The translations under genes were made by a program, and so were the position numbers. 47,049 bases of DNA, from positions 1-47,049 of the IMG/VR virus record IMGVR_UViG_3300048134_000195, one strand, 5' to 3'. Positions 128-47,049 of this stretch are shown piece after piece (positions within the stretch are counted from its first letter, which is position 1; each line of letters starts with the position of its first letter). The notes beneath the pieces are model-generated. The model had not been told where the DNA came from and did not search any database. It saw only the letters and a program-made list of their open reading frames with translations. Origin of the DNA: a virus.

Positions 128-285
128 CGACGACAGTCGACGATTACATCGAGACGCCTGGCGGTAATAAGGTCCACCCGAAGAACAAGAGCGCGTACTC
201 TGACGGTGGGTCGTATCGGAACGGTTCACTCTCGCATATGCCTGGATTCGGCGGCGACGACGAGGAGGATGATCCCGATGACTGA
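1..285 (+). CDS. 3' part of the junction-spanning gene (continuation of 45978..46922), ending ..GFGGDDEEDDPDD*
   Basis: Frame 1 is open from position 1 to TGA 283-285. It is the same frame as 45978..47049 once the 127-bp overlap is collapsed. The track shows only the internal-Met piece 40..285. Confidence 0.75.
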   Translation, partial: DDSSPAALVVDVQMIEEVDSELAATILRYHDKAEEGLLGSPTSTTVDDYIETPGGNKVHPKNKSAYSDGGSYRNGSLSHMPGFGGDDEEDDPDD

Positions 286-8361: not shown

Positions 8362-8946
8362 ATGGACGTCTCCGAAGAAGATCTGATTGGCGAGCCGCTC
8401 GACCAGGTACCGGTCCAGGATTCGACCGATGAATCTTGCATGGGGCGGCGGTGGGAGCGCCGGGACGGGGAGAAGGTGTTCGTCGGGTACTGTGGGGCGT
8501 GGCCAGGCAAGGGCACGGACGACGTCGGCGAGGGCCGCTGCTCGAAACACGGTGGGGCTGGCGGTGCTCCCGAGGACAACGACAACGCCGAGGGGAACGA
8601 CGGTGGCGCGCCCGAGGACAACGACAACGCCGCCGACCACGGCGCGTACTCGGAGAAGTTCCTCGAGGGGTTCGTCGGCCCGGACGGGAAGGACCGCATC
8701 AAGGAGGGATTCGAGCTCTCGAAGACGTCCGAGGGCGCGCAGGATCAGGCGCGCTTGATGGCGCAGGTCGCCGCGGAGAAGTTCCGCCTCACCGGCGACG
8801 AGCGATTCCTCCGCCGATACGAGTCGATCTGTGACAAGGCGGGCATCTTCCCGAACGAGGAGCTGGACGTCAACCACAACGGCATCGAGGACGCGTTCAT
8901 GGGGAACCTGAAGGACTACCACGAGGATGACGATGTCGACGAGTGA
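8362..8946 (+). CDS. terS: Terminase small subunit candidate (194 aa)
   Basis: Lies directly upstream of, and overlaps, terL. Motif GRCSKHGGAGGAPEDNDNA..HGAYS. The call rests mainly on position. Confidence 0.55.
   Translation: MDVSEEDLIGEPLDQVPVQDSTDESCMGRRWERRDGEKVFVGYCGAWPGKGTDDVGEGRCSKHGGAGGAPEDNDNAEGNDGGAPEDNDNAADHGAYSEKFLEGFVGPDGKDRIKEGFELSKTSEGAQDQARLMAQVAAEKFRLTGDERFLRRYESICDKAGIFPNEELDVNHNGIEDAFMGNLKDYHEDDDVDE
8569..8632 (+). repeat. In-frame duplication inside the terS candidate: a 22-nt exact repeat with 42-nt period
   Basis: cccgaggacaacgacaacgccg at 8569-8590 and again at 8611-8632. Peptide GGAPEDNDNA occurs twice. Confidence 0.9.
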
Positions 8947-10594
8947 CCACCTCGGCCACGACCGCGGCGACGCGCATACCAGCGACGTCGACGCGCCGAA
9001 GCCCCCCGCGCACTACGCTCGCCGGGCGGACGCGGGCGACGAGACGTGGATCGAAGACGCCATCGAGGACTACCTCGGGATTCGCCTCGGCCACACCCAG
9101 CGCCGAATCTGTCGCGCCGTCGCGACCAACCACCAGGTGCTCGTCGTCTCCGCAAACTCCCTCGGGAAGTCCTACATCCTCGCCGCCATCACGATCGTCT
9201 GGCTGCTCTGCCGGTACCCCGCCGTGTCGTTCGCGACGTCAGGGACCGAGCGGAAGATGAAGCGGACGTACTGCAAGCCCGTTGAAGCACTCCACGGGGA
9301 TGGCCGCATCCCGCTCCCCGGCGAGTACAAGAGCCGGCCGGAACGCATCGAATTCGATGACGACCCCGAGCACTTCTTCGAAGCCTCCAGCCCACGGGAC
9401 GCCGGCGAGCTCGAGGGCGTCCACGCCGCGTACACGCTGGCGATCATCGAGGAGGCGGACAAGTCAGCCGTCGACGAGGACGTCATCGAGGCGATGCGGT
9501 CGCTCGCGAGCGACGACCGCGACCGCCTGATCGCCATCGCAAACCCACCCGAGGACGAGACGAACTCGATCTACCCCCTGATGGACGACCACCCGAACTG
9601 GGAGGTCATCCGCTTCTCAACGTTCGACTCCCACAACGTCCAGATCGACACCGGACGGACGTCCGGCCGGAAGATCGACGGGATCGCGGACATCTCGAAG
9701 CTCCAAGACGACTGGGTCGAGTTCAACGGCTCCGAGTGGCCCGGCTATGAGGACGCCCTCCGGATGTCCGCACCCCGAATCGACGAGGACGGCAACTACG
9801 TCTTCGTCGACGACGACACTCTCCCGCGGAACCCTGACTTCGAGGAGAACCTCTCCAAGCGCTGGTTCCGACGTCGCGCCGGCATCATGCCCCCGGCAGG
9901 CGCCAGCGTCAACCGCCCGTTCACGGTCGCCGACGTCAACTCGGCCTGGGAACGCGGCGACCTCCTCCAGGACGAACTCGACCGCGGCGACTTCGTGCTG
10001 CCGCCGGCGACCAGCTCGGGGATCGACGTCGCGCGGAGTGGCGACCAGACGGTGCTCGCGACGATCCACGAGAACGTGATGGTCATCCACTACAGCGAAC
10101 GCGGCACGAACCACACCGACCAGAGTGCTGCCCTCGAGGACATCCTCGTCGAGATGCAGCGCCACCCGATTGCAATCGACTTCATCGGCCACGGCAGCGC
10201 CGTCCACGACAACCTCCAGGAGTCACTCCCCGACGTCGGGAAGTTCGAAGCCGGCTCGACAGCGTGCCAGCCGACGGACTACCGCGACAAGTGGGCTGAG
10301 GGCATGGCACTCCTGGGAGAGTGGCTGGAGGACGGCGGCATCATCCTCGACCGGACGCTCCGGACGCAGATGCTGGCCGGCGCTCGCGAGCTCGAGTTCG
10401 AGGAGAAGTTCATCGGGAGCCGTGGCGAGGACGGCGAGAAGGTCTACACGCTCTCGTCGAAGGACGACATCAAGGATCGCCTCGACGAGGGGTCGCCGGA
10501 CTACCTCGACGCCGCGATGCAGGCGGCGTGGGCGGCCTCCGATGACACGGCGTTCGAGGACTCTGCCGGCGACAGCTGGCTGATTACTCAGTAA
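8927..10594 (+). CDS. terL: Terminase large subunit (555 aa)
   Basis: Track ORF. Walker A-like VVSANSLGKSY and Walker B-like LAIIEEAD. Size and position upstream of the portal fit. Confidence 0.85.
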   Translation: MTMSTSDHLGHDRGDAHTSDVDAPKPPAHYARRADAGDETWIEDAIEDYLGIRLGHTQRRICRAVATNHQVLVVSANSLGKSYILAAITIVWLLCRYPAVSFATSGTERKMKRTYCKPVEALHGDGRIPLPGEYKSRPERIEFDDDPEHFFEASSPRDAGELEGVHAAYTLAIIEEADKSAVDEDVIEAMRSLASDDRDRLIAIANPPEDETNSIYPLMDDHPNWEVIRFSTFDSHNVQIDTGRTSGRKIDGIADISKLQDDWVEFNGSEWPGYEDALRMSAPRIDEDGNYVFVDDDTLPRNPDFEENLSKRWFRRRAGIMPPAGASVNRPFTVADVNSAWERGDLLQDELDRGDFVLPPATSSGIDVARSGDQTVLATIHENVMVIHYSERGTNHTDQSAALEDILVEMQRHPIAIDFIGHGSAVHDNLQESLPDVGKFEAGSTACQPTDYRDKWAEGMALLGEWLEDGGIILDRTLRTQMLAGARELEFEEKFIGSRGEDGEKVYTLSSKDDIKDRLDEGSPDYLDAAMQAAWAASDDTAFEDSAGDSWLITQ

Positions 10595-29874: not shown

Positions 29875-30135
29875 ATGCGACCGCCGGCCAAACTATCCCG
29901 ACGACAGTTACTGGCCACCGCAACTGCGTCCCTGGCCCCAATTACAGGCTGTTCCAGAAACGGCAGTTCGCCGACATCGGCAGAGACGCCAACTGACTCG
30001 GCTGATACCCTCGTTATCGAGACAAAGGAGACTCACACAGCAACTGGAGAGCAGTCCTACACAGCAGTCGAATGGCATGACGAAGGAGCCCTCGTCGTGG
30101 AGCAGAGCGGAAGTTTAGAACTTACTGAGCAATAA
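29875..30135 (+). CDS. Secreted Tat lipoprotein (86 aa precursor)
   Basis: MRPPAKLSRRQLLATATASLAPITGC has a twin-arginine motif, a hydrophobic core and a lipobox ITG/C. The track lists 29869..30135 with a TTG start. Confidence 0.65.
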   Translation: MRPPAKLSRRQLLATATASLAPITGCSRNGSSPTSAETPTDSADTLVIETKETHTATGEQSYTAVEWHDEGALVVEQSGSLELTEQ

Positions 30136-30136
30136 C

Positions 30137-31267
30137 ATGGCTAAGATTAAACTCATCAACGAGAACGGCGTCATCAAAGGTATCGACCCAGAAACGGGTG
30201 AAGAGGTTCCGGTGGAGTTCGAGGACCTAGAGACTCAATCGGTAAGTACAGAGGAAGCACTAATCGGGAAAACCAATCCCTATCAATACGTCTCCGAGAG
30301 CCACACCACAGTTACTGTTCCCGGAGATTACGATACAATCCAAGAAGCAATCGACGACTGTCCGAAGAATCTCCGCCACGAGTACGTCATTGACGTTGAT
30401 AACGGGGCTTACGACGAGGACTTGGTATTCAGAGGCATCGCGAATCAAGGATATACGGGTGCGGAGGCATCGACCGGCGGGATTGGCACTGATGGAGAAC
30501 ACGGGATCATCCAGATAGTGGGCGACACTACAACGCCATCGAACGTCAAAATAAATTCGGTGACGGCGATCGGATGCACGGGCGTCCAAGCGCCCACCTT
30601 ATGGGGCGTGGAACTCAACGGCGCAAGCCCGCATGTTGACGAGGACACGACCGCGGTCTTCTCAGGGTGTCAACAAGCGTTTCTCGGGGATTGTAACTTC
30701 CGAGGAGGTGCAAATAAAGCGGTTACTGCATATGGCGGCAACCTCCATGTTCGCAATATGGATGTTGGGGCTGATAACTACGATATCGCGCTATATGCAA
30801 AGCGACAGGCCGCAATCCACGAGCGTAACACTTCAGGATCCGTGACGGATAGAGGATACGTCGCCTCTGACGCTTCTTCAATCCATTCTCAGCATGATAG
30901 TAACATTAGTTCTCCCAATCGCAAATATGACCCGGTGAGTGGCTCCTATACGGTTATAGGGCCGCAGGGAATCAACTTCCAAAATGTCCAACTTCTCGGG
31001 GATGCAGGTGGACTAGAAATAAACGACAGGGTGGGGAGTGTCCCGTTCATTCTCCGAGACCTAGAGAACGGTGTGGAACGGTTCCGTGCCGAAGGCAAGG
31101 GGTACGGCAACTCCCACATTGAAAACCTGTCGGGACAGACTGGCGACTTCGACGGGCAGGTGCGGCTTGATGATGGTTCTAACACTCCACACCGAGGCGT
31201 TGAATGTGTCTGGGACGATGTGAATGGTGTTTGGGTTGACCAGACGGACGGCAGTACCTTCACCTAA
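30137..31267 (+). CDS. Right-handed beta-helix (pectate-lyase-like) protein, probable receptor-binding tailspike or depolymerase (376 aa)
   Basis: Track ORF. Repetitive G/N/T/V-rich short-strand pattern (VTAIGCTGVQ, FSGCQQAFLGDCNFRGGANKAVTAYGGNLHVRNMDVG). About 47-50% G+C. Confidence 0.6.
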   Translation: MAKIKLINENGVIKGIDPETGEEVPVEFEDLETQSVSTEEALIGKTNPYQYVSESHTTVTVPGDYDTIQEAIDDCPKNLRHEYVIDVDNGAYDEDLVFRGIANQGYTGAEASTGGIGTDGEHGIIQIVGDTTTPSNVKINSVTAIGCTGVQAPTLWGVELNGASPHVDEDTTAVFSGCQQAFLGDCNFRGGANKAVTAYGGNLHVRNMDVGADNYDIALYAKRQAAIHERNTSGSVTDRGYVASDASSIHSQHDSNISSPNRKYDPVSGSYTVIGPQGINFQNVQLLGDAGGLEINDRVGSVPFILRDLENGVERFRAEGKGYGNSHIENLSGQTGDFDGQVRLDDGSNTPHRGVECVWDDVNGVWVDQTDGSTFT

Positions 31268-31335
31268 TCAGTCCTGATTCTCTTTTAGCGGGTGTCTCAC
31301 CGCCAGCATCCTGAAAGAAACACCCGGCGCCGAGG

Positions 31336-32175
31336 TTAGTGCCGGAGTTGCTGGAGGGCGTCCTCCAGGCGCTCCGGACTCTCCTCGATGTACGCAATCG
31401 CCGTGCTGAACTGACTCCACCCGAATAGGGCTTTCAAATCCATCGCCGAGAGACCACGGGCGGCGTAGTAGCTGGCGGCCGTCGCCCGCAGCGCGTGCGG
31501 GTAGATCTCGTCGACGTCGACGGACTCGGTCTGCCGAGCCATCCGGTCGACGCGCCGGTTCACGACACCACGAGACGCTTCGAATTCATCGTAGTGCGTG
31601 AAGTAGTCCTCAACGGCGAGCGCTGCCCGCGTACTGGCTTCCGCGTACGGGATCTTCCTCGCAGCGTTCACCGTCTTCGGCGACCACATCTGCGCGTAGA
31701 ATGGCTCCGCGTCGACGAATAACTCGTAGACGTGGCCGCCGGGCTCGAGGACGTCGTGCCGCCCCAGGCTCTGGTAGTGGTCGTCGAGCGTGTTTGCCGT
31801 GCGGATGTCCGCCATCTGCTCGGCGGCACCACGGCAGTGCCCACAGATGTCTCGCGTTCGCCCGTCGGTACAGGGTTCGTGTTTCGGGATTTCGATGCGT
31901 TCGTCCTCCCAGTTGACCCAGTCCGCTTTCATGTGCGCGACCTCACCAGGTCGCATGCCGAGGCGGCCGCACGCGAAGAGGACGAGCCGGCACTCCCGAG
32001 CGAAGTAATCATCGTCCATCCGGTAGGTCGCCTGCACCATCTGCTCGAACTGGCGTTCGGTGATGGCGTCCTCCTTGGTGTGACGGACGGCATCGTCGCT
32101 TGCCCAGTCCTTTCCGTGGTCGTCGCCGGTGACGGGCTTACGGCCACGCGGCCGCTGCTGGTCCGACGAGCTCAC
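31336..32175 (-). CDS. int: Tyrosine recombinase / integrase (279 aa) with a Cys-containing insertion
   Basis: Track ORF. Motifs GMRPGE (Arg), HALRATAASY (HxxR) and GWSQFSTAIAYI (Tyr). Insertion is CTDGRTRDICGHC. Confidence 0.85.
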   Translation of the reverse strand: MSSSDQQRPRGRKPVTGDDHGKDWASDDAVRHTKEDAITERQFEQMVQATYRMDDDYFARECRLVLFACGRLGMRPGEVAHMKADWVNWEDERIEIPKHEPCTDGRTRDICGHCRGAAEQMADIRTANTLDDHYQSLGRHDVLEPGGHVYELFVDAEPFYAQMWSPKTVNAARKIPYAEASTRAALAVEDYFTHYDEFEASRGVVNRRVDRMARQTESVDVDEIYPHALRATAASYYAARGLSAMDLKALFGWSQFSTAIAYIEESPERLEDALQQLRH

Positions 32176-32945: not shown

Positions 32946-33950
32946 TCAGTCTGCGGCGTCGCTGCGATGCCAGCCCCACGCAATCGGGGCGGCCATCGCG
33001 ACCGTCGCGACCGGCAGCATCGTCGACGCGCCCAGACTCGGGACGGACCCCGCGATGCCAGCAGCTGCCAGCCCCACAACAGCCCCATACTTCCCCGCCT
33101 TCACTGCCGTCTTCGACTCCGCAGGCGTGAACCGGCCAATCGTTCGGTCACCATTCTCGACGTCCTGGACGTCGTCAGCGAGCGTTTCCACGCGGGCGGC
33201 CATCTGGTCAGCGCCGAGCGCGGACAGCTCTGCAGCGGCGCCCATCGGCGTCGAGGAACTGATCTTTGCGTAGACGTCGTCGGCCGGTGTGGTGTCGGTA
33301 TCCCAGTTGGCACCGTCGAGGAGATCGGCGTCGGCGAAGTCCTGGATGATTTGGTCGTCCGAGGAGATTGCAAGATAGTTTTTCATCGTCGCGTAGTCTT
33401 CCCAGCCGCCGACGGCCATGACGGTCTCCATATTCATGTCGTGGCGGACGAGACAGTTGGTGGCAAAGTATCGGCGGAGGTCGTGTGGCGAGAAGTAGCG
33501 CTCGTAGTCGACGTCGCCTGTTTGTTCGGTGACGAGCGTCCCGATTTTATACGCCCAGTCGTTCATCGTTCTCGAACTGATGCCGACGAGCGGTTCGTCA
33601 TCGGGGATGTGTGTTTCTTCGCGGATTGTTTCGATGCAGTCGATGGTTGCTCGAGTGAGTGGGACTTTGCGATATTTTCCGTTTTCTGTTTTGCCGGTGG
33701 TGTCTTTCCCCCAGACTTCTGCGAATTTGATGTCGGTGTCGAGGTTGGTGTTGACGATGTCGTTGTAGGTGAGGTCGACCATGCCGTCCTTGCGGAGGCC
33801 GCGGCCGCCGAGGCGGGCGAAGAGTTCGGCTTGTTTTGGGTGGCCGTGAATCGAGATTGTTGATGCGATGTCGACGATGAGTTCGAATTCTTCTTGGGTG
33901 GGGAAGAGCGCAGCTTCGTCTTCGTTTTCGAGTTGGCGTTTAGTGGCCAT
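32946..33950 (-). CDS. Second tyrosine recombinase (334 aa) with a ~130-aa C-terminal extension ending in two hydrophobic segments
   Basis: Track ORF. Motifs GGRGLRKDG, HDLRRYFATN and GGWEDYATMKNYL. Tail contains YGAVVGLAAAGIAGSVPSLG and STMLPVATVAMAAPIAWGW. Confidence 0.75.
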   Translation of the reverse strand: MATKRQLENEDEAALFPTQEEFELIVDIASTISIHGHPKQAELFARLGGRGLRKDGMVDLTYNDIVNTNLDTDIKFAEVWGKDTTGKTENGKYRKVPLTRATIDCIETIREETHIPDDEPLVGISSRTMNDWAYKIGTLVTEQTGDVDYERYFSPHDLRRYFATNCLVRHDMNMETVMAVGGWEDYATMKNYLAISSDDQIIQDFADADLLDGANWDTDTTPADDVYAKISSSTPMGAAAELSALGADQMAARVETLADDVQDVENGDRTIGRFTPAESKTAVKAGKYGAVVGLAAAGIAGSVPSLGASTMLPVATVAMAAPIAWGWHRSDAAD

Positions 33951-34688: not shown

Positions 34689-35081
34689 TCACTCAATCGC
34701 GTAGCCCCATCCCCGCAGGACCTCCGCAATCTCGTCGTCGTGCTCGAGGCCGACCAGCAGCGCAGCCTCGCGCAAGTCCGCCTTCTTCACAGACTCGCCG
34801 AGCAACTGCTCGACGTCACTCTTCCCGGCGCGTTCAGCGTCCACAGTATCGGCTTGTAGATGGAGTTGCACCGTCTTCTCACGCCCGTCCGTAATGCTAT
34901 TTCGGCGATGAATCCATGGCAGCCGCGTCGTCGTGTCACCGCCAGCATCCTGCACCGACCCACCCGTCGACTCAGGAGTCTGGTCGCGGTCGACGTCGCG
35001 ACGATCGTCGGCGTCCTCTTCCTCCTCAAAACTATCATCATCCCAGTCGTCGTCCGCAGCGCCGCTCTTGAATCCAGCCAT
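34689..35081 (-). CDS. Acidic protein with a C-terminal RHH-like domain, ParG-like partner of ParA (130 aa)
   Basis: Track ORF with ATGA overlap onto parA. C-terminus is ..LPWIHRRNS..VQLHLQ..ADLREAALLVGLEH..LRGWGYAIE. Confidence 0.55.
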   Translation of the reverse strand: MAGFKSGAADDDWDDDSFEEEEDADDRRDVDRDQTPESTGGSVQDAGGDTTTRLPWIHRRNSITDGREKTVQLHLQADTVDAERAGKSDVEQLLGESVKKADLREAALLVGLEHDDEIAEVLRGWGYAIE

Positions 35082-35968
35082 CAGGCGGTCACCTCGGTTT
35101 CATCCTCGTCGTCGAGCGCACCGGGCTCAGGCGGGGATGGTGCCTCAATCCCGCCAACGCGCTCGATGAACCGCGCGATTTCGTCGAACTGCGCGAGCGT
35201 ATCCACTTCGTAGTCCCGGCGCCGGTCGCGGTGTTCACGAACGTACTGATACGCCGAGCACTGTTGCCGCCAGCACCCCTCCAGCAGGGCCGTCCGGTCC
35301 CCGATCACCGCGGGGACGTCGTACGGGATCTCCTTGAGGAGGTCCTGCTGATCGCTCGTTCCCTTGACCCCGACGGGGACGGCGCCGAGGACACCGACGT
35401 CGATGTTCAATTCGTCCGCGAAGTTCCGCGCGAGGTCCTCCAGCCCCTCAACTGCTGCTTGTCCTTTCGCGCTCGGTTCGACTGGGAGGAGGAGGTTTCG
35501 CGTGGCGTAGATCGCGTTGTAGAGGTGTGCCCCCTCCGTTGCGGGCGGGTCGACGATGACGACGTCGTACTCGCTGGGGACGTCGGCTTCTTGGAGGACG
35601 CGCCGGAGCTGGGCGTGGACGTTGTATGCTTCGCCGAAGTCCTCTGCTTTCTGCTTCTCGCGGCGGAGGTGGTCTTCGAGGTCCGACAGCGCGTTGTGCT
35701 CGGGGACAATGTCGACGCCCTCGGCGGTCCGAATGAGGTCGTGGAACGGACCGCGTGGTGAGTCGACCATGTGGCGGACGATGTTGTCGGCTGAGGAGTT
35801 CTCGCGGTCGTCGTCGACGTCGAAGAGGCGGCTGAGGTTTCCGTCCTGGGGGTCGAGCGGAACCACGAGGACGTCGAGGCCGGCTCGGCGATGCGCGACG
35901 GCGAGGTTCGCAGTAAGCGTCGTTTTGCCGACGCCACCTGCCTCCGAGTACACGGTGTACGCGAGCAT
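35081..35968 (-). CDS. parA: ParA/Soj-type partition ATPase (295 aa)
   Basis: Track ORF. Deviant Walker A VYSEAGGVGKTTLTANLA and Walker B-like YDVVIVDPPA. Confidence 0.85.
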   Translation of the reverse strand: MLAYTVYSEAGGVGKTTLTANLAVAHRRAGLDVLVVPLDPQDGNLSRLFDVDDDRENSSADNIVRHMVDSPRGPFHDLIRTAEGVDIVPEHNALSDLEDHLRREKQKAEDFGEAYNVHAQLRRVLQEADVPSEYDVVIVDPPATEGAHLYNAIYATRNLLLPVEPSAKGQAAVEGLEDLARNFADELNIDVGVLGAVPVGVKGTSDQQDLLKEIPYDVPAVIGDRTALLEGCWRQQCSAYQYVREHRDRRRDYEVDTLAQFDEIARFIERVGGIEAPSPPEPGALDDEDETEVTA

Positions 35969-39796: not shown

Positions 39797-40816
39797 ATGT
39801 ACGCTCGGTATCACGTCTTCGATGAAGGCTGGGTGCCCGAGGACCTCCATGCCCGCAACGGCGAGCTGCAAGCGCTCGCCGACGCCCTCGACGACCTCGC
39901 GCGTGGGTCCCGTGCGCCTAACCCCGTCCTCCTCAGCGGGCCGCCCGGCGCCGGGAAAACCGCGTCATCCCGGTACGTCCTCGACGATCTCGAAGACTCC
40001 ACGACAGTCCACACGGCGTTAGTCGACGCCTGGACGAACCACAAGCCCTACCAGACGTACGGCGCGCTCCTCCAGGAGCTCGGGAAGGCTGGCGTCGTCC
40101 AACCCCAGACCCCGCACAGCGCCCTCCGTGATCGTGTCCGCGACGCCACCCCAGACGGCGGCGTCGTTGTCGTGCTTGACGAGGCCGACCAGCTTGACGA
40201 CCCACAGATCCTGCGTGACCTCGACGCGATGGCTGGTGTTGCGGTGGTCGCAATCGTCAACGACGAGGCCGGGTTCCGCGACCGGCTCGACCGCAAATCC
40301 GCCGGCGTCGAGTTCCGCGAGTCAGTCCCGTTCGGCCCCTACAGTGAGGGAGAGTTAGTGGATATCCTGCAGCCGCGTGCAAGCCGTGGGCTGCGCCTGG
40401 GGTACCGGCGGACGAACGCCCTCGAGGCAGTTGCCGCGCGCGCCAACGGGAACGCACGGGTTGCCATCCAGGGGCTGCGGGCAGCTGCCGAGCACGCGCA
40501 CGAGTCGAATCGTAGCGAGATCCGCATCTGGGACGTCGAGGCTGGGATTGATACGGCGGTCGAGCAGATCCGCCGGAAGACCCGGTCGCGGTTGCAGCGC
40601 CACGAACGCGTCGTCCTGGAGGTGGTTGAGGATCTTGAGCCGGCGCGGAAAAGCGCGGTCTACGAGGAGTACGCGAATCGGGTTGGGGAGGAGGCGCGGA
40701 GTCAGCGCCGTGTTGAGGATTATCTCTCGAAGTTGACGTCGTATAATCTGCTTGTGGCTGAGGGGGAGACGCGCGCTCGTCGATACGCGGTTGCTGGCGA
40801 GGCGGCGACGGCGTAA
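39797..40816 (+). CDS. orc1: Orc1/Cdc6 replication initiator (339 aa)
   Basis: Track ORF. Walker A LLSGPPGAGKTASS, Walker B VVVLDEADQL and a C-terminal winged helix. Confidence 0.9.
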   Translation: MYARYHVFDEGWVPEDLHARNGELQALADALDDLARGSRAPNPVLLSGPPGAGKTASSRYVLDDLEDSTTVHTALVDAWTNHKPYQTYGALLQELGKAGVVQPQTPHSALRDRVRDATPDGGVVVVLDEADQLDDPQILRDLDAMAGVAVVAIVNDEAGFRDRLDRKSAGVEFRESVPFGPYSEGELVDILQPRASRGLRLGYRRTNALEAVAARANGNARVAIQGLRAAAEHAHESNRSEIRIWDVEAGIDTAVEQIRRKTRSRLQRHERVVLEVVEDLEPARKSAVYEEYANRVGEEARSQRRVEDYLSKLTSYNLLVAEGETRARRYAVAGEAATA

Positions 40817-41292: not shown

Positions 41293-41304
41293 GGCTACCA
41301 AATG

Positions 41305-41424
41305 CTACCACCACCACTAACTTAAGGGTCACCCCATGCAGAGGCGGATGTGCGGATTCTACTACTACTACCACCACCACATTTATATCACGACACACCC
41401 ATGAACAGTATAGGTGGTAGTAGT
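41305..41424. promoter_or_regulatory. Operator-like repeats between the divergent Zn-ribbon genes
   Basis: Identical 13-mer ctaccaccaccac at 41305-41317 and 41368-41380. 12-bp perfect inverted repeat actactaccacc (41364-41375) / ggtggtagtagt (41413-41424) brackets tttatat (41382-41388). Confidence 0.65.
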
Positions 41425-41575
41425 GGCGGAAAACACAAATCAAACACCTTCAGAAACGATCGAAGTCACCTGTCAAAACTGCGGGTACGAGTGGACGTAC
41501 TCCGGAGATCTCCAGATGGTGACCTGTCCGAGTTGCCAGCGGAAAACTCCGGCAGAACCTGACGACGAAGAATAG
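41414..41575 (+). CDS. Zn-ribbon protein (53 aa, GTG start; alternative GTG 41423), paralogue of 41122..41292
   Basis: Not in the track. ..AENTNQTPSETIEVTCQNCGYEWTYSGDLQMVTCPSCQRKTPAEPDDEE*. Shares C-x2-CG[YH]-x-W-x-Y[ST]GD-x5-TCPSC with the paralogue. Confidence 0.6.
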   Translation: MVVVAENTNQTPSETIEVTCQNCGYEWTYSGDLQMVTCPSCQRKTPAEPDDEE

Positions 41576-44697: not shown

Positions 44698-44993
44698 TGC
44701 CGGATCTCGCCGAGCACCACTACCCACCAAACAGTACCGACGCTGGGGTCGCCCCGGACGTCGAGGACTTCCGAGAGCAGGTCCGAGAATACTGCCGCTA
44801 CCGCCGCGACGAGCAGGGGAACGCGTACGTCACCGCGACGAAGGTCACCCGTGAGTTCGACGTCACGCCCCAGAAGGCGGGCGCCGCACTCGCGAAACTC
44901 ACGGAAGCGGGCGCGCTCTCCACGTGGAAGGACGACGCGCGCCGGACGACCTACCGCATCACGCTCGACGACACGGGTGGTCGCGATGAGTGA
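44697..44993 (+). CDS. wHTH-like small protein (98 aa)
   Basis: Internal ATG 44697 of track ORF 44322..44993 (ATGA overlap). VTATKVTREFDVTPQKAGAALAKLTEAGALSTW. Confidence 0.55.
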   Translation: MPDLAEHHYPPNSTDAGVAPDVEDFREQVREYCRYRRDEQGNAYVTATKVTREFDVTPQKAGAALAKLTEAGALSTWKDDARRTTYRITLDDTGGRDE

Positions 44994-45240
44994 GTACGGC
45001 CGCCCCACCGCAACCAGCGGGGACCGTCCCTCGAATCCGGACATCAAGGACCGCATCGGCGAGGATCCCGCGCGCTACCTCGTCGACCCGGACATGACGA
45101 CGTGGAGCCGTATCCGCGGCATCAACAGCGAGGACGTGCTCGAGGCGTGGCTCAGTGTCGAGGAAGACCTCGGCCCACGCCGCAAGGTCATCAAGCGCCT
45201 GAACAAGCGCCGCCGCGAGCTCCAGGAGGCGGATTCGTGA
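44986..45240 (+). CDS. Hypothetical protein (84 aa)
   Basis: Internal ATG 44986 of track ORF 44851..45240. ATGAGTGA overlap. Confidence 0.5.
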   Translation: MSEYGRPTATSGDRPSNPDIKDRIGEDPARYLVDPDMTTWSRIRGINSEDVLEAWLSVEEDLGPRRKVIKRLNKRRRELQEADS

Positions 45241-45401
45241 TGGCCCAACCCAGCGACCCGAACAGCCTCCCGGACTCGCTTGCGGAGTTCAAGCAGATGG
45301 CGATCGTCAAGGACTGCACCGCCTGTGGCGAGGAGACGCGGCTGCGCTTCCTCGAGGACGGCGAGTGCCCGGGCTGCAGGTACGGGGGCGATGCCGCATG
45401 A
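45240..45401 (+). CDS. Zn-ribbon protein (53 aa)
   Basis: Internal ATG 45240 of track ORF 45102..45401. Motifs CTACG ... CPGC. Confidence 0.5.
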   Translation: MAQPSDPNSLPDSLAEFKQMAIVKDCTACGEETRLRFLEDGECPGCRYGGDAA

Positions 45402-45985
45402 CGGGCGTCAGACGAACCGTCGGTCGGACGCGAACCTTCAAAGGGACGGCCAGCAAACAGGCAATCAGCAAGACACAGCAGGCACTACGAGAACACAACG
45501 GACCGCAGAAGCCGGGGCGTCCCACCGCCCCGCAGGACCAGAACTCGTCCACTGCTTCTGCGCCGAGGGACTTAGCATTTGCCCCTTCGACCAGCCCCAG
45601 CTCTATCCCTCGCGACGTCCTCGGGCGTCAGTCCACCCCCACCAGCGCAGCCAGCTGCATGCACGACTACACGATCGAGATCGACGACGTCGAACCGGAC
45701 GATGAGCCAGTCGACCACCACGACCCACTCCGAGAATTTTTTTCTTTGAAAGCCCACCCCACCACGCCATCTCTCCCCCACGGCGAGAATGAGAACAGCA
45801 CGGAGAGCGGTTGTTGTAGCGGTCTGGCTGTGCTGTGCTGTCTGAACAGTACGAAGTACTGGGGTGGGGGTACGCGTACCCCCACCCCTGTCTCCCACCA
45901 TGTTGGTGTGAGTGGTGGTGGTTCCAGCCACCGCCTCACACCATCTTGGTGGGAGCAGGCTCGTGGGGTGGTCGCCGATGTATGA
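45398..45985 (+). CDS. Questionable ORF (195 aa): a basic, low-complexity N-half whose 3' ~250 nt coincide with heavily structured DNA
   Basis: Internal ATG 45398 of track ORF 45365..45985 (ATGA overlap). There is no in-frame stop before 45985. The distal part reads like translated repeats (..CCSGLAVLCCLNSTKYWGGGTRTPTPVSHHVGVSGGGSS..). Confidence 0.35.
   Translation: MTGVRRTVGRTRTFKGTASKQAISKTQQALREHNGPQKPGRPTAPQDQNSSTASAPRDLAFAPSTSPSSIPRDVLGRQSTPTSAASCMHDYTIEIDDVEPDDEPVDHHDPLREFFSLKAHPTTPSLPHGENENSTESGCCSGLAVLCCLNSTKYWGGGTRTPTPVSHHVGVSGGGSSHRLTPSWWEQARGVVADV
45734..45751. repeat. 18-bp AT-rich inverted repeat, left arm (gaatttttttctttgaaa)
   Basis: Perfect reverse complement of 46193..46210. 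Confidence 0.95.
45827..45841. repeat. Tandem pentamer (GCTGT)x3
   Basis: gctgtgctgtgctgt read directly. Confidence 0.9.
45861..45888. repeat. 28-bp perfect palindrome ggggtgggggtacgcgtacccccacccc
   Basis: The sequence equals its own reverse complement. The centre is ACGCGT. Confidence 0.97.
45893..45954. repeat. Nested hairpin: 8-bp + 8-bp perfect stems plus an imperfect inner stem
   Basis: tcccacca (45893-45900) pairs with tggtggga (45947-45954). ggtgtgag (45905-45912) pairs with ctcacacc (45935-45942). Inner stem is tggtggtgg with ccaccgc. Confidence 0.85.
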
Positions 45986-47049
45986 CCACACTCCTCTCGA
46001 CTGGCTCGTCCCGTCCGATGAGTGGGACCGGTTCTGCCGCTTCGTCGAGGGAGAGGACGGGAGTCTCGACGGCTATCTCGGCGATGCAGCGGAACAGGCG
46101 ATGGCCGAGTACGCTCATGTCGACGAGTACGCCGGCATCGAGGAGCGGGTCGACAAGCTCGTCACGGCTGCCGGTCGCCGTCCCGAGGACGGTTTCAAAG
46201 AAAAAAATTCGGGGTTGCTGGAGGACTGGGCAGACGCGGACAAGACTCGCGTCACCGTCAAAGTCGAGCGTGAAGTGAAGGCGAAGTTCCGCGAAGTCGC
46301 GAGTGACAGCGACCACGCGTTCGGCGTGGAATTCGCGCGCGCCATTCGCACGTACCGCGACGGCGGTCGTCGCGACCGTGTCGAACGGAAGCTCGACCGC
46401 ATCCTTGACGACGCCGAACGCCTCCTCAGCGACCTGCAGCCCGACGACGAGGAGACCGAGGGTTCCTCAGAGTCGCTGTCGTTGGCGGAGCGGAAGACCA
46501 TCGCCGTCTGCGACGAGCTCGGCGAGCAGTTCACCGATGACGAACTGGTCGACGCCATCGAGCGTGTCGCCGAGGTCTCCAGCGAACCCTCGATCGAGAA
46601 GTACCGCGGGCTGGTCGTTGACCGACTCGGGATGGAGCGTCACCCAGGCGAACCGCATCTGTGGGTTCCCCATGATGTCGTGGACCAGCTCGCACCTGGC
46701 CAGCCTCGCGTAATCCGGCAGTCAGTCGAACGCCTCGATCGCGAGGAACGCGTTCGCCGCGTTCAACTGGCAGTCGGTCGTGCTGCCGCTGAACGCGACT
46801 CTGACATCGTCCGCGTGCAGACACCCGTAATTCAGGAAGAAGTCCTCGGCGGCGAAGTCACGCGGTCGAGCACGTTGAGTCTGATGCGCGCGGCGCAGTT
46901 GTCCGCGGGCATCGAGGTTGATGACGACTCCTCGCCCGCAGCGCTTGTCGTTGACGTCCAGATGATCGAAGAGGTGGATTCCGAATTGGCAGCGACGATA
47001 CTCAGGTACCACGATAAGGCCGAGGAGGGCTTGCTCGGGTCGCCGACGT
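45978..47049 (+). CDS. 5' part of the junction-spanning gene (409 aa in total on the circular map: 45978..46922 then 1..285)
   Basis: Manual codon-by-codon reading shows ATG 45978 and no stop up to the window end. The frame continues at position 1. It is absent from the ORF track because it has no stop in the window. Contains an RHH-like KTRVTVKVEREVKAKFREV segment. Confidence 0.75.
   Translation, partial: MYDHTPLDWLVPSDEWDRFCRFVEGEDGSLDGYLGDAAEQAMAEYAHVDEYAGIEERVDKLVTAAGRRPEDGFKEKNSGLLEDWADADKTRVTVKVEREVKAKFREVASDSDHAFGVEFARAIRTYRDGGRRDRVERKLDRILDDAERLLSDLQPDDEETEGSSESLSLAERKTIAVCDELGEQFTDDELVDAIERVAEVSSEPSIEKYRGLVVDRLGMERHPGEPHLWVPHDVVDQLAPGQPRVIRQSVERLDREERVRRVQLAVGRAAAERDSDIVRVQTPVIQEEVLGGEVTRSSTLSLMRAAQLSAGIEVDDDSSPAALVVDVQMIEEVDSELAATILRYHDKAEEGLLGSPT
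46193..46210. repeat. 18-bp AT-rich inverted repeat, right arm (tttcaaagaaaaaaattc), inside the junction-spanning gene
   Basis: Perfect reverse complement of 45734..45751. Encodes ..GFKEKNSG... Confidence 0.95.
46923..47049. repeat. Terminal direct repeat copy 2 (127 bp, identical to 1..127)
   Basis: Same comparison. The preceding bases ..gaggttgat have no counterpart because the window starts at the repeat. Confidence 0.97.

Follow-up and report, generated by a model that had tools for sequence, protein, structure and literature searches.

A mirror pair of T-run elements around the start of a putative DNA-binding protein gene in a ChaoS9-like haloarchaeal virus: candidate inward-facing transcription signals

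The gene regulation of temperate archaeal tailed viruses is almost unmapped. The closest arrangements are those of phiH (T_ant against T1), lambda (PR/PRE and OOP) and coliphage 186 (pR/pL), where face-to-face signals lie over the 5' end of a regulator gene at a developmental boundary and control involves antisense transcription. Signals of the kind considered here have been described in the haloarchaea themselves. Intergenic termination in Haloferax volcanii uses a T-stretch motif and takes place at a C (T5C, 95% in vivo), and the authors of that study consider such a T-run hardly compatible with a GC-rich coding sequence (PMC7237163). The haloarchaeal core promoter consists of the B recognition element (BRE) CGAAA followed by the TATA element TTWT, and 1244 antisense start sites have been reported in Hfx. 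volcanii, with levels inverse to those of the sense transcripts (PMC4983044). Here we describe two T-runs that form a perfect inverted repeat around the start codon of a gene encoding a 409-aa protein. The gene is carried by the virus record IMGVR_UViG_3300048134_000195 from IMG/VR, whose whole stretch of 47,049 nucleotides is called the window below.

The two arms of the repeat (45734–45751 and 46193–46210) are reverse-complementary at 18 of 18 positions and separated by 441 nt. The left arm is situated upstream of the ATG of the 409-aa gene, and the right arm is inside the gene, in codons 72–78. This geometry had been claimed in the preliminary description of the locus, made from the letters alone, and it is confirmed, as are the 28-bp palindrome and the nested hairpin reported there between the arms. 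The same description had called doubtful the tail of the open reading frame (ORF) that covers the left arm. Indeed, the ORF 45365/45398–45985 is not credible, since it fails the filter based on the GC content of third codon positions (GC3) and acidity, and no gene is called at the left-arm position in the relatives. The arm word has no further copy in the window with up to three mismatches, and 100 dinucleotide shuffles of the window yielded no match. Given the base composition of the window, the expected number of perfect 18-nt inverted pairs is 0.064 anywhere and 0.0014 within 500 nt, and the expected number of extra copies of the AT-rich arm word is 1e-8. The pair is the longest perfect spaced inverted repeat of the window, the arms contain its only A or T homopolymers of length six or more in 47 kb, and they are the most easily melted DNA of the genome.

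Both arms match the intrinsic-terminator motif, a T-stretch of at least five ending at C: each contains T7C, and the two face inward on opposite strands. The BRE/TATA pattern is present as well, as CCGAGAA-TTTTTTT in the left arm and CCCCGAA-TTTTTTT in the reverse complement of the right one. In the relatives, the blocks preceding the T-run are GAGAGAA-, CGAGAAAA- and CAGAA-TTTTATTTT. The likeness to the Hfx. volcanii terminators and promoters is that each arm has T7C with a CGAAA-like block before it. However, here the two signals form a perfect inverted pair 441 nt apart with co-evolving flanks, and no such pairing is described. Further, one of the arms is imposed here on a coding sequence, with rare codons; according to the Hfx. 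volcanii Term-seq paper, a T-run within a coding sequence is expected to be rare, and harmful if it is in the sense orientation. The arrangement is similar to those of phiH, lambda and coliphage 186 in that the signals face each other over the 5' end of the gene, but only here are they mirror-identical and symmetric about the start codon, and the antisense RNA of this locus is a prediction.

For comparison we used 28 distinct loci (denoted by L numbers). They come from a protein collection (homologs 34–80% identical), from IMG/VR, from GTDB genomes (Haloferax mucosum, Hfx. elongans, Halopenitus, Haladaptatus, Haloarcula amylolytica, Halomarina, Natronococcus and others) and from plasmids, including pNG100 of Haloarcula marismortui. 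The protein-level set comprised 38 clusters, 15 of these added by a profile search. The bracket, at about −240 and about +225 from the ATG, is seen in relatives of at least seven genera, in viruses, proviruses and plasmids. The T-rich run at about −240 and the A-rich run from +224 are present wherever the upstream DNA and the K-E-K linker both exist, and in nearly all relatives the A-run begins at +224. In all lineages the midpoint of the bracket is at most about 8 nt from the ATG. The T-run was found on both sides in 20 out of 20 lineages examined. The left T-run almost always follows a GAGAA-like block, also in the loci where the right arm has no mirror copy of it.

At least 13 lineages have a perfect inverted pair of 13–19 nt, and the sequence of the pair differs between lineages (examples are given in Table 1). 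L005 and L015 match strictly over only 11–12 nt. In six loci (L287, L288, L289, L291, L292 and L007) the flanks are mismatched, with the T-run and the A-run retained. To compare the arms, they were anchored on the T-run, and the identity within a locus was contrasted with that across loci. This test replaced pair counting in a MAFFT alignment of the full segment, where the register shifted and a +1 slide scored better. Over the ten bases past the T-run the identity is 64% within a locus against 40% across loci, a value reached in 0 of 5000 permutations; hence the arms truly covary. The length of the matched stretch is constant, about 14–19 nt, with moving borders: the 5' extension from the T-run varies from 0 to 5 nt and the 3' extension from 0 to 11 nt. 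Lack of conservation in related genomes had been named in the preliminary description as an argument against any function of the arms; they are clearly conserved and covarying across genera, and thus functional.

Scans of viral and metagenome contigs with the arm word and with a gapped two-arm pattern yielded almost exclusively AT-rich noise, L006 and L009, both known beforehand, being the only GC-rich loci among the matches listed. Scans with words combining the arm and its inner flank, covering either orientation, gave nothing new. A decaying cassette is observed in the Haloferax gibbonsii plasmid pHG4 (L294 2164–2620). It retains both arms and the leader, has lost about 39 nt from the N-terminal coding part, and its gene is truncated; the A-run has grown to A9, which shows that the homopolymer is prone to slippage once selection is lost.

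The right arm is costly in terms of codons. The probability of AAA GAA AAA AAT given the peptide KEKN is 8e-4 under the codon usage of the window itself, and the same rare codons are used in the arms of the relatives. The synonymous codon identity among the relatives is 0.75 in the arm codons, 0.59 in codons 2–71 and 0.48 in the remaining part of the gene, and this increase inside the bracket fits an overlapping function at the nucleic-acid level. The profile is uneven: the identity is 0.6–0.69 over codons 1–54 (45978–46140) and dips to approximately 0.40–0.44 in codons 55–71, just before the right arm. In the AlphaFold model of the protein, the linker residues 71–78, encoded by the right arm, have a predicted local distance difference test score (pLDDT) below 50. 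As rare codons and synonymous constraint coincide in a linker of such low confidence, the K-E-K-N/K-S motif looks like a by-product of a DNA or RNA signal and not like a requirement of the protein.

The leader between the left arm and the ATG is rich in palindromes, whose arrangement is largely shared by the relatives. In many of them a GAG(A/G)GT-like motif occurs 26–33 nt past the left T-run; if the T-run serves as a TATA box, the transcript should begin about 22–27 nt 3' of it, for which this motif and the SD-bearing leader are indirect evidence. One or two GC hairpins then precede the small hairpin, whose sequence is lineage-specific. The nested palindrome is preceded by the near-invariant CCCCC(A/T)CCCCTGCCTCACA (CCCCC(A/T)CCCCTG(C/T)CTC), which is more conserved than the protein. 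The consensus hairpin of the nested palindrome consists of 17 pairs, and compensatory changes are seen in 11 of these. The exceptions are G.U in 7 cases and A.C in 6, and since these counts are about equal, the hairpin shows no strand bias. The component palindromes at 45892–45955, CTCACAxCA-NNN-TGxTGTGAG, pair better with each other, forming a long hairpin, than within themselves, and the same is seen in the relatives (alignment A3). The ATG is preceded by a Shine-Dalgarno (SD)-like motif, GGGGTGG or, in the relatives, GGAGGTGA, which we take to match the anti-SD sequence at the 3' ends of haloarchaeal 16S rRNA; hence the mRNA should be leadered. From the left arm to the ATG there is no other AT-rich element in any of the relatives, and in L005, which has a divergent gene upstream, no further AT-rich element occurs anywhere in the 332-nt gap to that gene.

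We propose that the arms are twin inward-facing terminator/promoter elements that provide insulation and sense/antisense control, and we put the probability of this reading at about 0.4. Transcription coming in from orc1/cdc6 and other early genes of the upstream block, or from a non-coding RNA (ncRNA) 5' of the cassette, would end at the left arm, which would also supply the sole TATA-like element for the palindrome-rich, SD-bearing leader of about 210 nt of the 409-aa gene. The right arm, being the same signal on the opposite strand, would stop antisense transcription across the first 66–72 codons and the leader, and it would probably also launch antisense transcription over this region. The outcome would be a 441-bp zone closed to polymerases from outside and subject to sense/antisense competition, which in turn would gate the regulator as well as the block beyond it, which leads to terS, terL and portal. 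The identity of the flanks may reflect a shared co-evolving binding factor, possibly the 409-aa product itself. The twin-signal reading explains why the runs are unique in the genome, why they survive despite the decay of the flanks, why rare codons are used and why synonymous positions are constrained within the bracket. The left arm is situated 3' of co-directional genes in the window (genes to 45401), in pNG100 and in L286, where it lies 18 nt past a stop codon; in L005 and L285 the upstream gene is divergent.

Several observations weigh against this interpretation. Past the arms, the similarity of the left and right sides is 0.49 compared to 0.47 in shuffled sequences, that is, not over the background. 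No minus-strand genes from which antisense transcripts could come in lie beyond the right arm in the window, and the other likely promoters of the genome have mixed A/T TATA boxes (TATAAG, TTAAG, TATTTA) and not T7. Moreover, the function of a terminator or promoter alone does not need identity of the 4–11 nt beside the T-runs, yet these positions covary, and a constant match of about 14–19 nt with shifting borders looks more like selection on base pairing or on recombinational identity. As selection for the arm identity is left unaccounted for, we retain three alternatives, namely inversion, a long-range RNA helix and a pair of operators.

In the case of inversion, a recombinase would cross over in the arms, flip the 441 bp and part the leader and codons 1–72 from the gene body, creating an ON/OFF switch. 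The geometry is suitable, as perfect inverted repeats of 14–19 nt flank a few hundred bp with the regulatory region and the gene start, in the relatives too, and the arms stay identical despite their lineage-specific sequence, as recombination would need. The two tyrosine recombinases noticed in the preliminary description are indeed encoded in the window (Table 1), and invertible tail-fibre modules are carried by ChaoS9, phiH1 and phiCh1 (PMC6471424), which we also count for inversion. The locus shares short perfect inverted repeats, regulatory DNA and preserved arm identity with fimS of E. coli, with flgB/cwpV of Clostridioides difficile and with the invertible promoters of Bacteroides; unlike them, it shows no second orientation and no adjacent or obligatory recombinase, its segment contains 72 codons of an intact conserved gene, and its arms are cross-genus T-runs. 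The inverted state is seen in none of the 28 assembled loci, lysogen and plasmid assemblies included, and in none of the 38 protein clusters, the N-terminal 72 codons being collinear with the gene body, although a rare flipped subpopulation could escape notice in such assembled sequences. The protein collection contains no N-terminal fragment product of about 100 aa. A Logan run-level contig (L003) crosses both arms unbroken. The recombinase genes of the window are about 13 kb from the arms and have no invertible tail-fibre module near them, and a 16.7-kb Halomarina plasmid keeps a perfect 18-nt pair without an annotated recombinase, where a host enzyme might act instead. Further, the T-run is conserved at 35–45% protein identity and outlasts the identity of the arms, which recombination leaves unexplained. 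It had been suggested that inversion could alternatively join the gene body in frame to GTG codons. Such a frame does exist in the window, and it is open also in L001, L005 and L023 (in L023 over 72 codons, with a start), but it closes within 14–26 codons in six relatives (L006, L008, L009, L011, L015 and L024), so the alternative N-terminus is not conserved. With a single orientation throughout and T-runs that outlive the arm identity, neither the ON/OFF nor the N-terminus-swapping switch is borne out, and we consider inversion unlikely. The covariation with moving borders and a helix length of about 14–19 bp is most naturally read as the classical signature of a paired stem, which argues for a long-range RNA helix: the U-rich left arm would pair with the A-rich right arm, close a domain of about 440 nt, with the leader hairpins, the SD motif, the AUG and codons 1–72 in it, and control translation or processing. 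The computed pairing probability of the arms is approximately 1 on either strand if both are in one RNA, and the interior hairpins hold their structure while the sequence changes. On the other hand, T7C should end most transcripts before both arms are included (T5C, 95%; PMC7237163), and the left arm is outside the mRNA if it serves as a TATA box. The mismatches in the arms show no clear G.U preference (two are G.U-compatible on the plus strand, six on the minus strand, and three are transversions), the G.U and A.C exceptions in the central hairpin are about equally frequent, and pairing alone leaves the A/T runs in rare codons unexplained. The RNAduplex energies of the flanks were uninformative in the GC-rich sequence. 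We regard such a helix as rather improbable. The same low standing is given to a broader variant, selection on the arm complementarity itself, where the U7/A7 arms would pair as RNA or single-stranded DNA and clamp the domain of about 440 nt with the ribosome-binding site and the codons of the first DNA-binding domain of a viral master regulator, the runs doubling as outward-guarding terminators. If true, it would be a new long-range gate for the entry into late gene expression in archaeal viruses, half encoded in a protein linker.

The arms could also be twin operators, bound by one sequence-specific protein, e.g. the ribbon-helix-helix (RHH)/winged-helix product of the 409-aa gene, that would loop the 441 bp and autoregulate, the sites co-evolving. 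Looping regulators typically have identical inverted sites spaced by a few hundred bp, the gene is predicted to encode a DNA-binding protein of several domains, and the central palindromes covary without strand bias, as protein-bound dyads would. However, the matched positions float relative to the T-run, as described above, a three-way co-evolution of two sites and a protein would be required, and the invariance of the T-run across proteins only 35–40% identical suggests a generic reader and not a specific one. Hence this explanation seems as doubtful as inversion, although regulator binding at the arms, put forward among other options in the preliminary description, may occur and is compatible with the twin terminator/promoter reading. 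Finally, the cassette might be a second (lytic) replication origin, partly situated in the initiator gene, with the central G-strings and dyads as initiator sites and the AT-rich arms as unwinding elements. Lambda has an AT patch in the linker of protein O, and the present locus similarly combines an AT-rich element in the flexible linker of a DNA-binding protein with nearby repeated palindromes resembling binding sites; but the patches here are far shorter than in the lambda origin, they form an inverted pair with one member outside the gene, and an Orc1-type initiator is encoded elsewhere. The ease of melting of the arms agrees with this role. The dyad and G-string units (e.g. CTCACACCA..TGGTGGGAG-N9-GGGGTGG) resemble haloarchaeal origin recognition boxes (ORBs), the euryarchaeal consensus being GTTCCAGTGGAAAC-AAA----GGGGG with the G-string typical of halophiles (PMC1868953; PMC3528665). 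Still, the unwinding elements characterised in haloarchaea span about 100 bp and are A/T-rich (PMC1868953), whereas the patches here are only 18 bp, and just 8 or 22 GC-rich nt separate the inverted ORB-like units. The orc1/cdc6 gene is 5 kb away, no GC-skew turn is seen at the cassette, and in pNG100 the Orc-type origin is predicted adjacent to cdc6 and not at the 409-aa homolog (PMC3528665). The earlier suggestion of unwinding or initiator sites of a second origin is therefore weak, and we find it very improbable.

Two other candidates were rejected. A miniature inverted-repeat transposable element (MITE) or an insertion sequence (IS) would not fit a single pair per genome at a fixed position in all relatives that bears a conserved N-terminus. 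Target-site duplications were not found at the outer flanks (..CTCCGA, GGGGTT..), and their lack had already been taken as an argument against a MITE. The right arm of the window contains an in-frame slippery heptamer, A AAA AAT, as in Sulfolobus fucA1 (A-AAA-AAT) and similar to A6C of IS1. We reject programmed −1 frameshifting at this site, as no product in an alternative frame is conserved: the −1/+1 extensions vary from 0 to 337 codons among the relatives, and several relatives lack the heptamer. Besides, frameshifting leaves the upstream arm unaccounted for.

We found no earlier description of this cassette, and the paper on ChaoS9 (PMC6471424) mentions neither inverted repeats nor antisense control. 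The parts are known kinds of signals; what appears to be new is their combination, a mirror pair that is symmetric about the start codon, half situated in a coding linker, with co-evolving flanks. A compact cassette of about 480 bp is thus kept across at least seven haloarchaeal genera, between an orc1/replication-type block and virion genes, and it bears three independent signs of selection at the nucleotide level, namely covarying arms, rare codons in the linker and raised synonymous conservation. Should the twin T7C elements act as terminators and promoters, they would provide a directly testable model of insulation of late expression and of its timing by sense/antisense competition, and an example of a transcription signal shaping a protein linker (K-E-K-N/K-S). 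The carriers include cultured type strains of Haloarcula marismortui (ATCC 43049, pNG100), Haloferax mucosum (ATCC BAA-1512) and Haloferax elongans (ATCC BAA-1513), and experiments can therefore be easily set up; further carriers are the Halobacterium salinarum strains of GCA_030250265 and GCA_030250185.

Table 1. Elements of the cassette, neighbouring genes of the window, and arms in related loci (for the related loci, the sequence is that of the left arm or of a right/left pair)
Feature	Position	Strand	Basis or remark
Left arm, GAATTTTTTTCTTTGAAA	45734–45751	.	244–227 nt 5' of ATG; counterpart in relatives at about −255 to −217
Left signal, CCGAGAA + TTTTTTT + C (BRE-like purine block, T7C), rightward (inward)	45730–45744	+	sequence and published motifs
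Left T7C	45737–45744	+	sequence
Right arm, TTTCAAAGAAAAAAATTC	46193–46210	.	within the 409-aa gene, third base of codon 72 to codon 78 (G-F-K-E-K-N-S)
Right T7C, mirror twin of the left, leftward (inward)	46200–46207	-	G + A7 on the plus strand
Small hairpin CAGTAC-GAA-GTACTG beside G-string	45847–45861	+	hairpin also present here in relatives, but unrelated in sequence
Perfect 28-bp palindrome GGGGTGGGGGTACG/CGTACCCCCACCCC, back-to-back G-strings	45861–45888	.	relatives keep GGGxGGGGG..CCCCCxCCCC
Long nested palindrome, arms CTCCCACCATGTTGGTGTGAG / CTCACACCATCTTGGTGGGAG around an inner hairpin	45892–45955	.	compensatory changes in relatives
SD-like motif GGGGTGG (GGAGGTGA in relatives)	45965–45971	+	6–9 nt 5' of ATG; sequence
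Conserved non-coding block with nested stems, 5' of left arm	45485–45660	+	comparison with relatives
409-aa gene, first part	45978–47049	+	ATG at 45978; ORF
409-aa gene, last part, beyond the 127-bp overlap	128–285	+	ORF
Tyrosine recombinase 1	31336–32175	-	ORF annotation
Tyrosine recombinase 2	32946–33950	-	ORF annotation
ParA	35081–35968	-	ORF annotation
Orc1/Cdc6	39797–40816		ORF annotation
Halobacterium salinarum (L001) arm, AGAATTTTTTTCTTTGAAA			spacing again exactly 441 nt
L009 arm, GAGAATTTTTTTCTTCGC			
L023 arm, ACTTTTTTTGTTTGTGTG			right arm codes H-K-Q-K-K
pNG100 (L024) arm, ATTTTATTTTTTCGCTG			right arm codes S-E-K-I-K
L285 arms, TGGATGGAAACAAAAAA / TTTTTTGTTTCCATCCA			
L286 arms, CTAAAAAATAAAAAAG / CTTTTTTATTTTTTAG			
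L293 arm, TTTTTTTCCTTTC			

The 409-aa protein belongs to phrog_29021 (6.8e-108), a family to which no function is assigned there. It has no relative in Pfam, NCBIfam or among the PDB sequences, and no source provides a name for the family, the 15 clusters added by the profile search being unnamed as well. The AlphaFold model (mean pLDDT 76) features RHH-like units at residues 4–46 and 89–127, a long helix and two winged-helix-like domains, and a Foldseek search with this model yields weak winged-helix matches. The product is thus a predicted multi-domain DNA-binding protein. Near-identity searches of the phage collection, both with the DNA of the region and with the 409-aa protein, gave no match.

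The window is a circular ChaoS9-like temperate tailed haloarchaeal virus. Its bases 1–127 are identical to 46923–47049, and hence the record is a circular assembly. The identity of the ends may represent an overlap of such an assembly or a terminal repeat, and the 409-aa gene crosses it, continuing at 128–285. The virus family was identified through TerL only (8927–10594), which is 74% identical to TerL of Halobacterium virus ChaoS9; the 409-aa gene is not present in ChaoS9. Preceded by about 580 nt of non-coding sequence, the gene heads a long plus-strand block toward the packaging and head genes, where terS, the portal gene and the gene for a Mu-F-like head protein accompany terL. The cassette is placed where the orc1-containing block meets the terminase-leading one. 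In the 16.7-kb Halomarina plasmid, the 409-aa homolog is immediately 5' of terS and terL. The scanned ORFs of the window include no gene for TFB or TBP; in one metagenomic relative a TFB (TFIIB-type) gene is located directly 3' of the homolog (L287 2688–3614). A gene for a ParA-type ATPase adjoins the homolog in three loci (L005 4360–5139, L286 2771–3754, L293 3710–4152), in two of the cases together with a DUF7970 protein.

The conserved block upstream of the left arm (45485–45660) contains the stems GCAGAAGC..GCTTCTGC around GGGGCG-TCCCAC-CGCCCC. It shares about 90% identity with a contig of Halobacterium salinarum (L001 2520–2690), although the identity of the adjacent protein is only 66%. 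In the relatives, canonical TATA-like words are seen 300–340 nt 5' of the left arm. The block is a candidate for an ncRNA of about 300 nt or a long 3' untranslated region, which would end at the left T7C. The Rfam search over 44800–47049 gave two sub-threshold chance matches and none at the gathering score, the tRNA scan found none, and the scan for sigma-70 promoters and hairpin terminators nothing relevant.

Some other regions of the window stand out by their base composition. The AT-rich gap at 41300–41445, about 500 nt past orc1/cdc6, has CTACCACCACCAC twice as well as a TTTATAT box enclosed by an imperfect inverted repeat of 29 nt, and is a candidate origin or divergent promoter region. 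A low-GC patch (0.52) at 30000–31300, with the ORF 30137–31267, adjoins both tyrosine recombinase genes, and the most AT-rich stretch of the genome, 33996–34058, is situated just 5' of the integrase start; these two may represent acquired DNA and the attP region.

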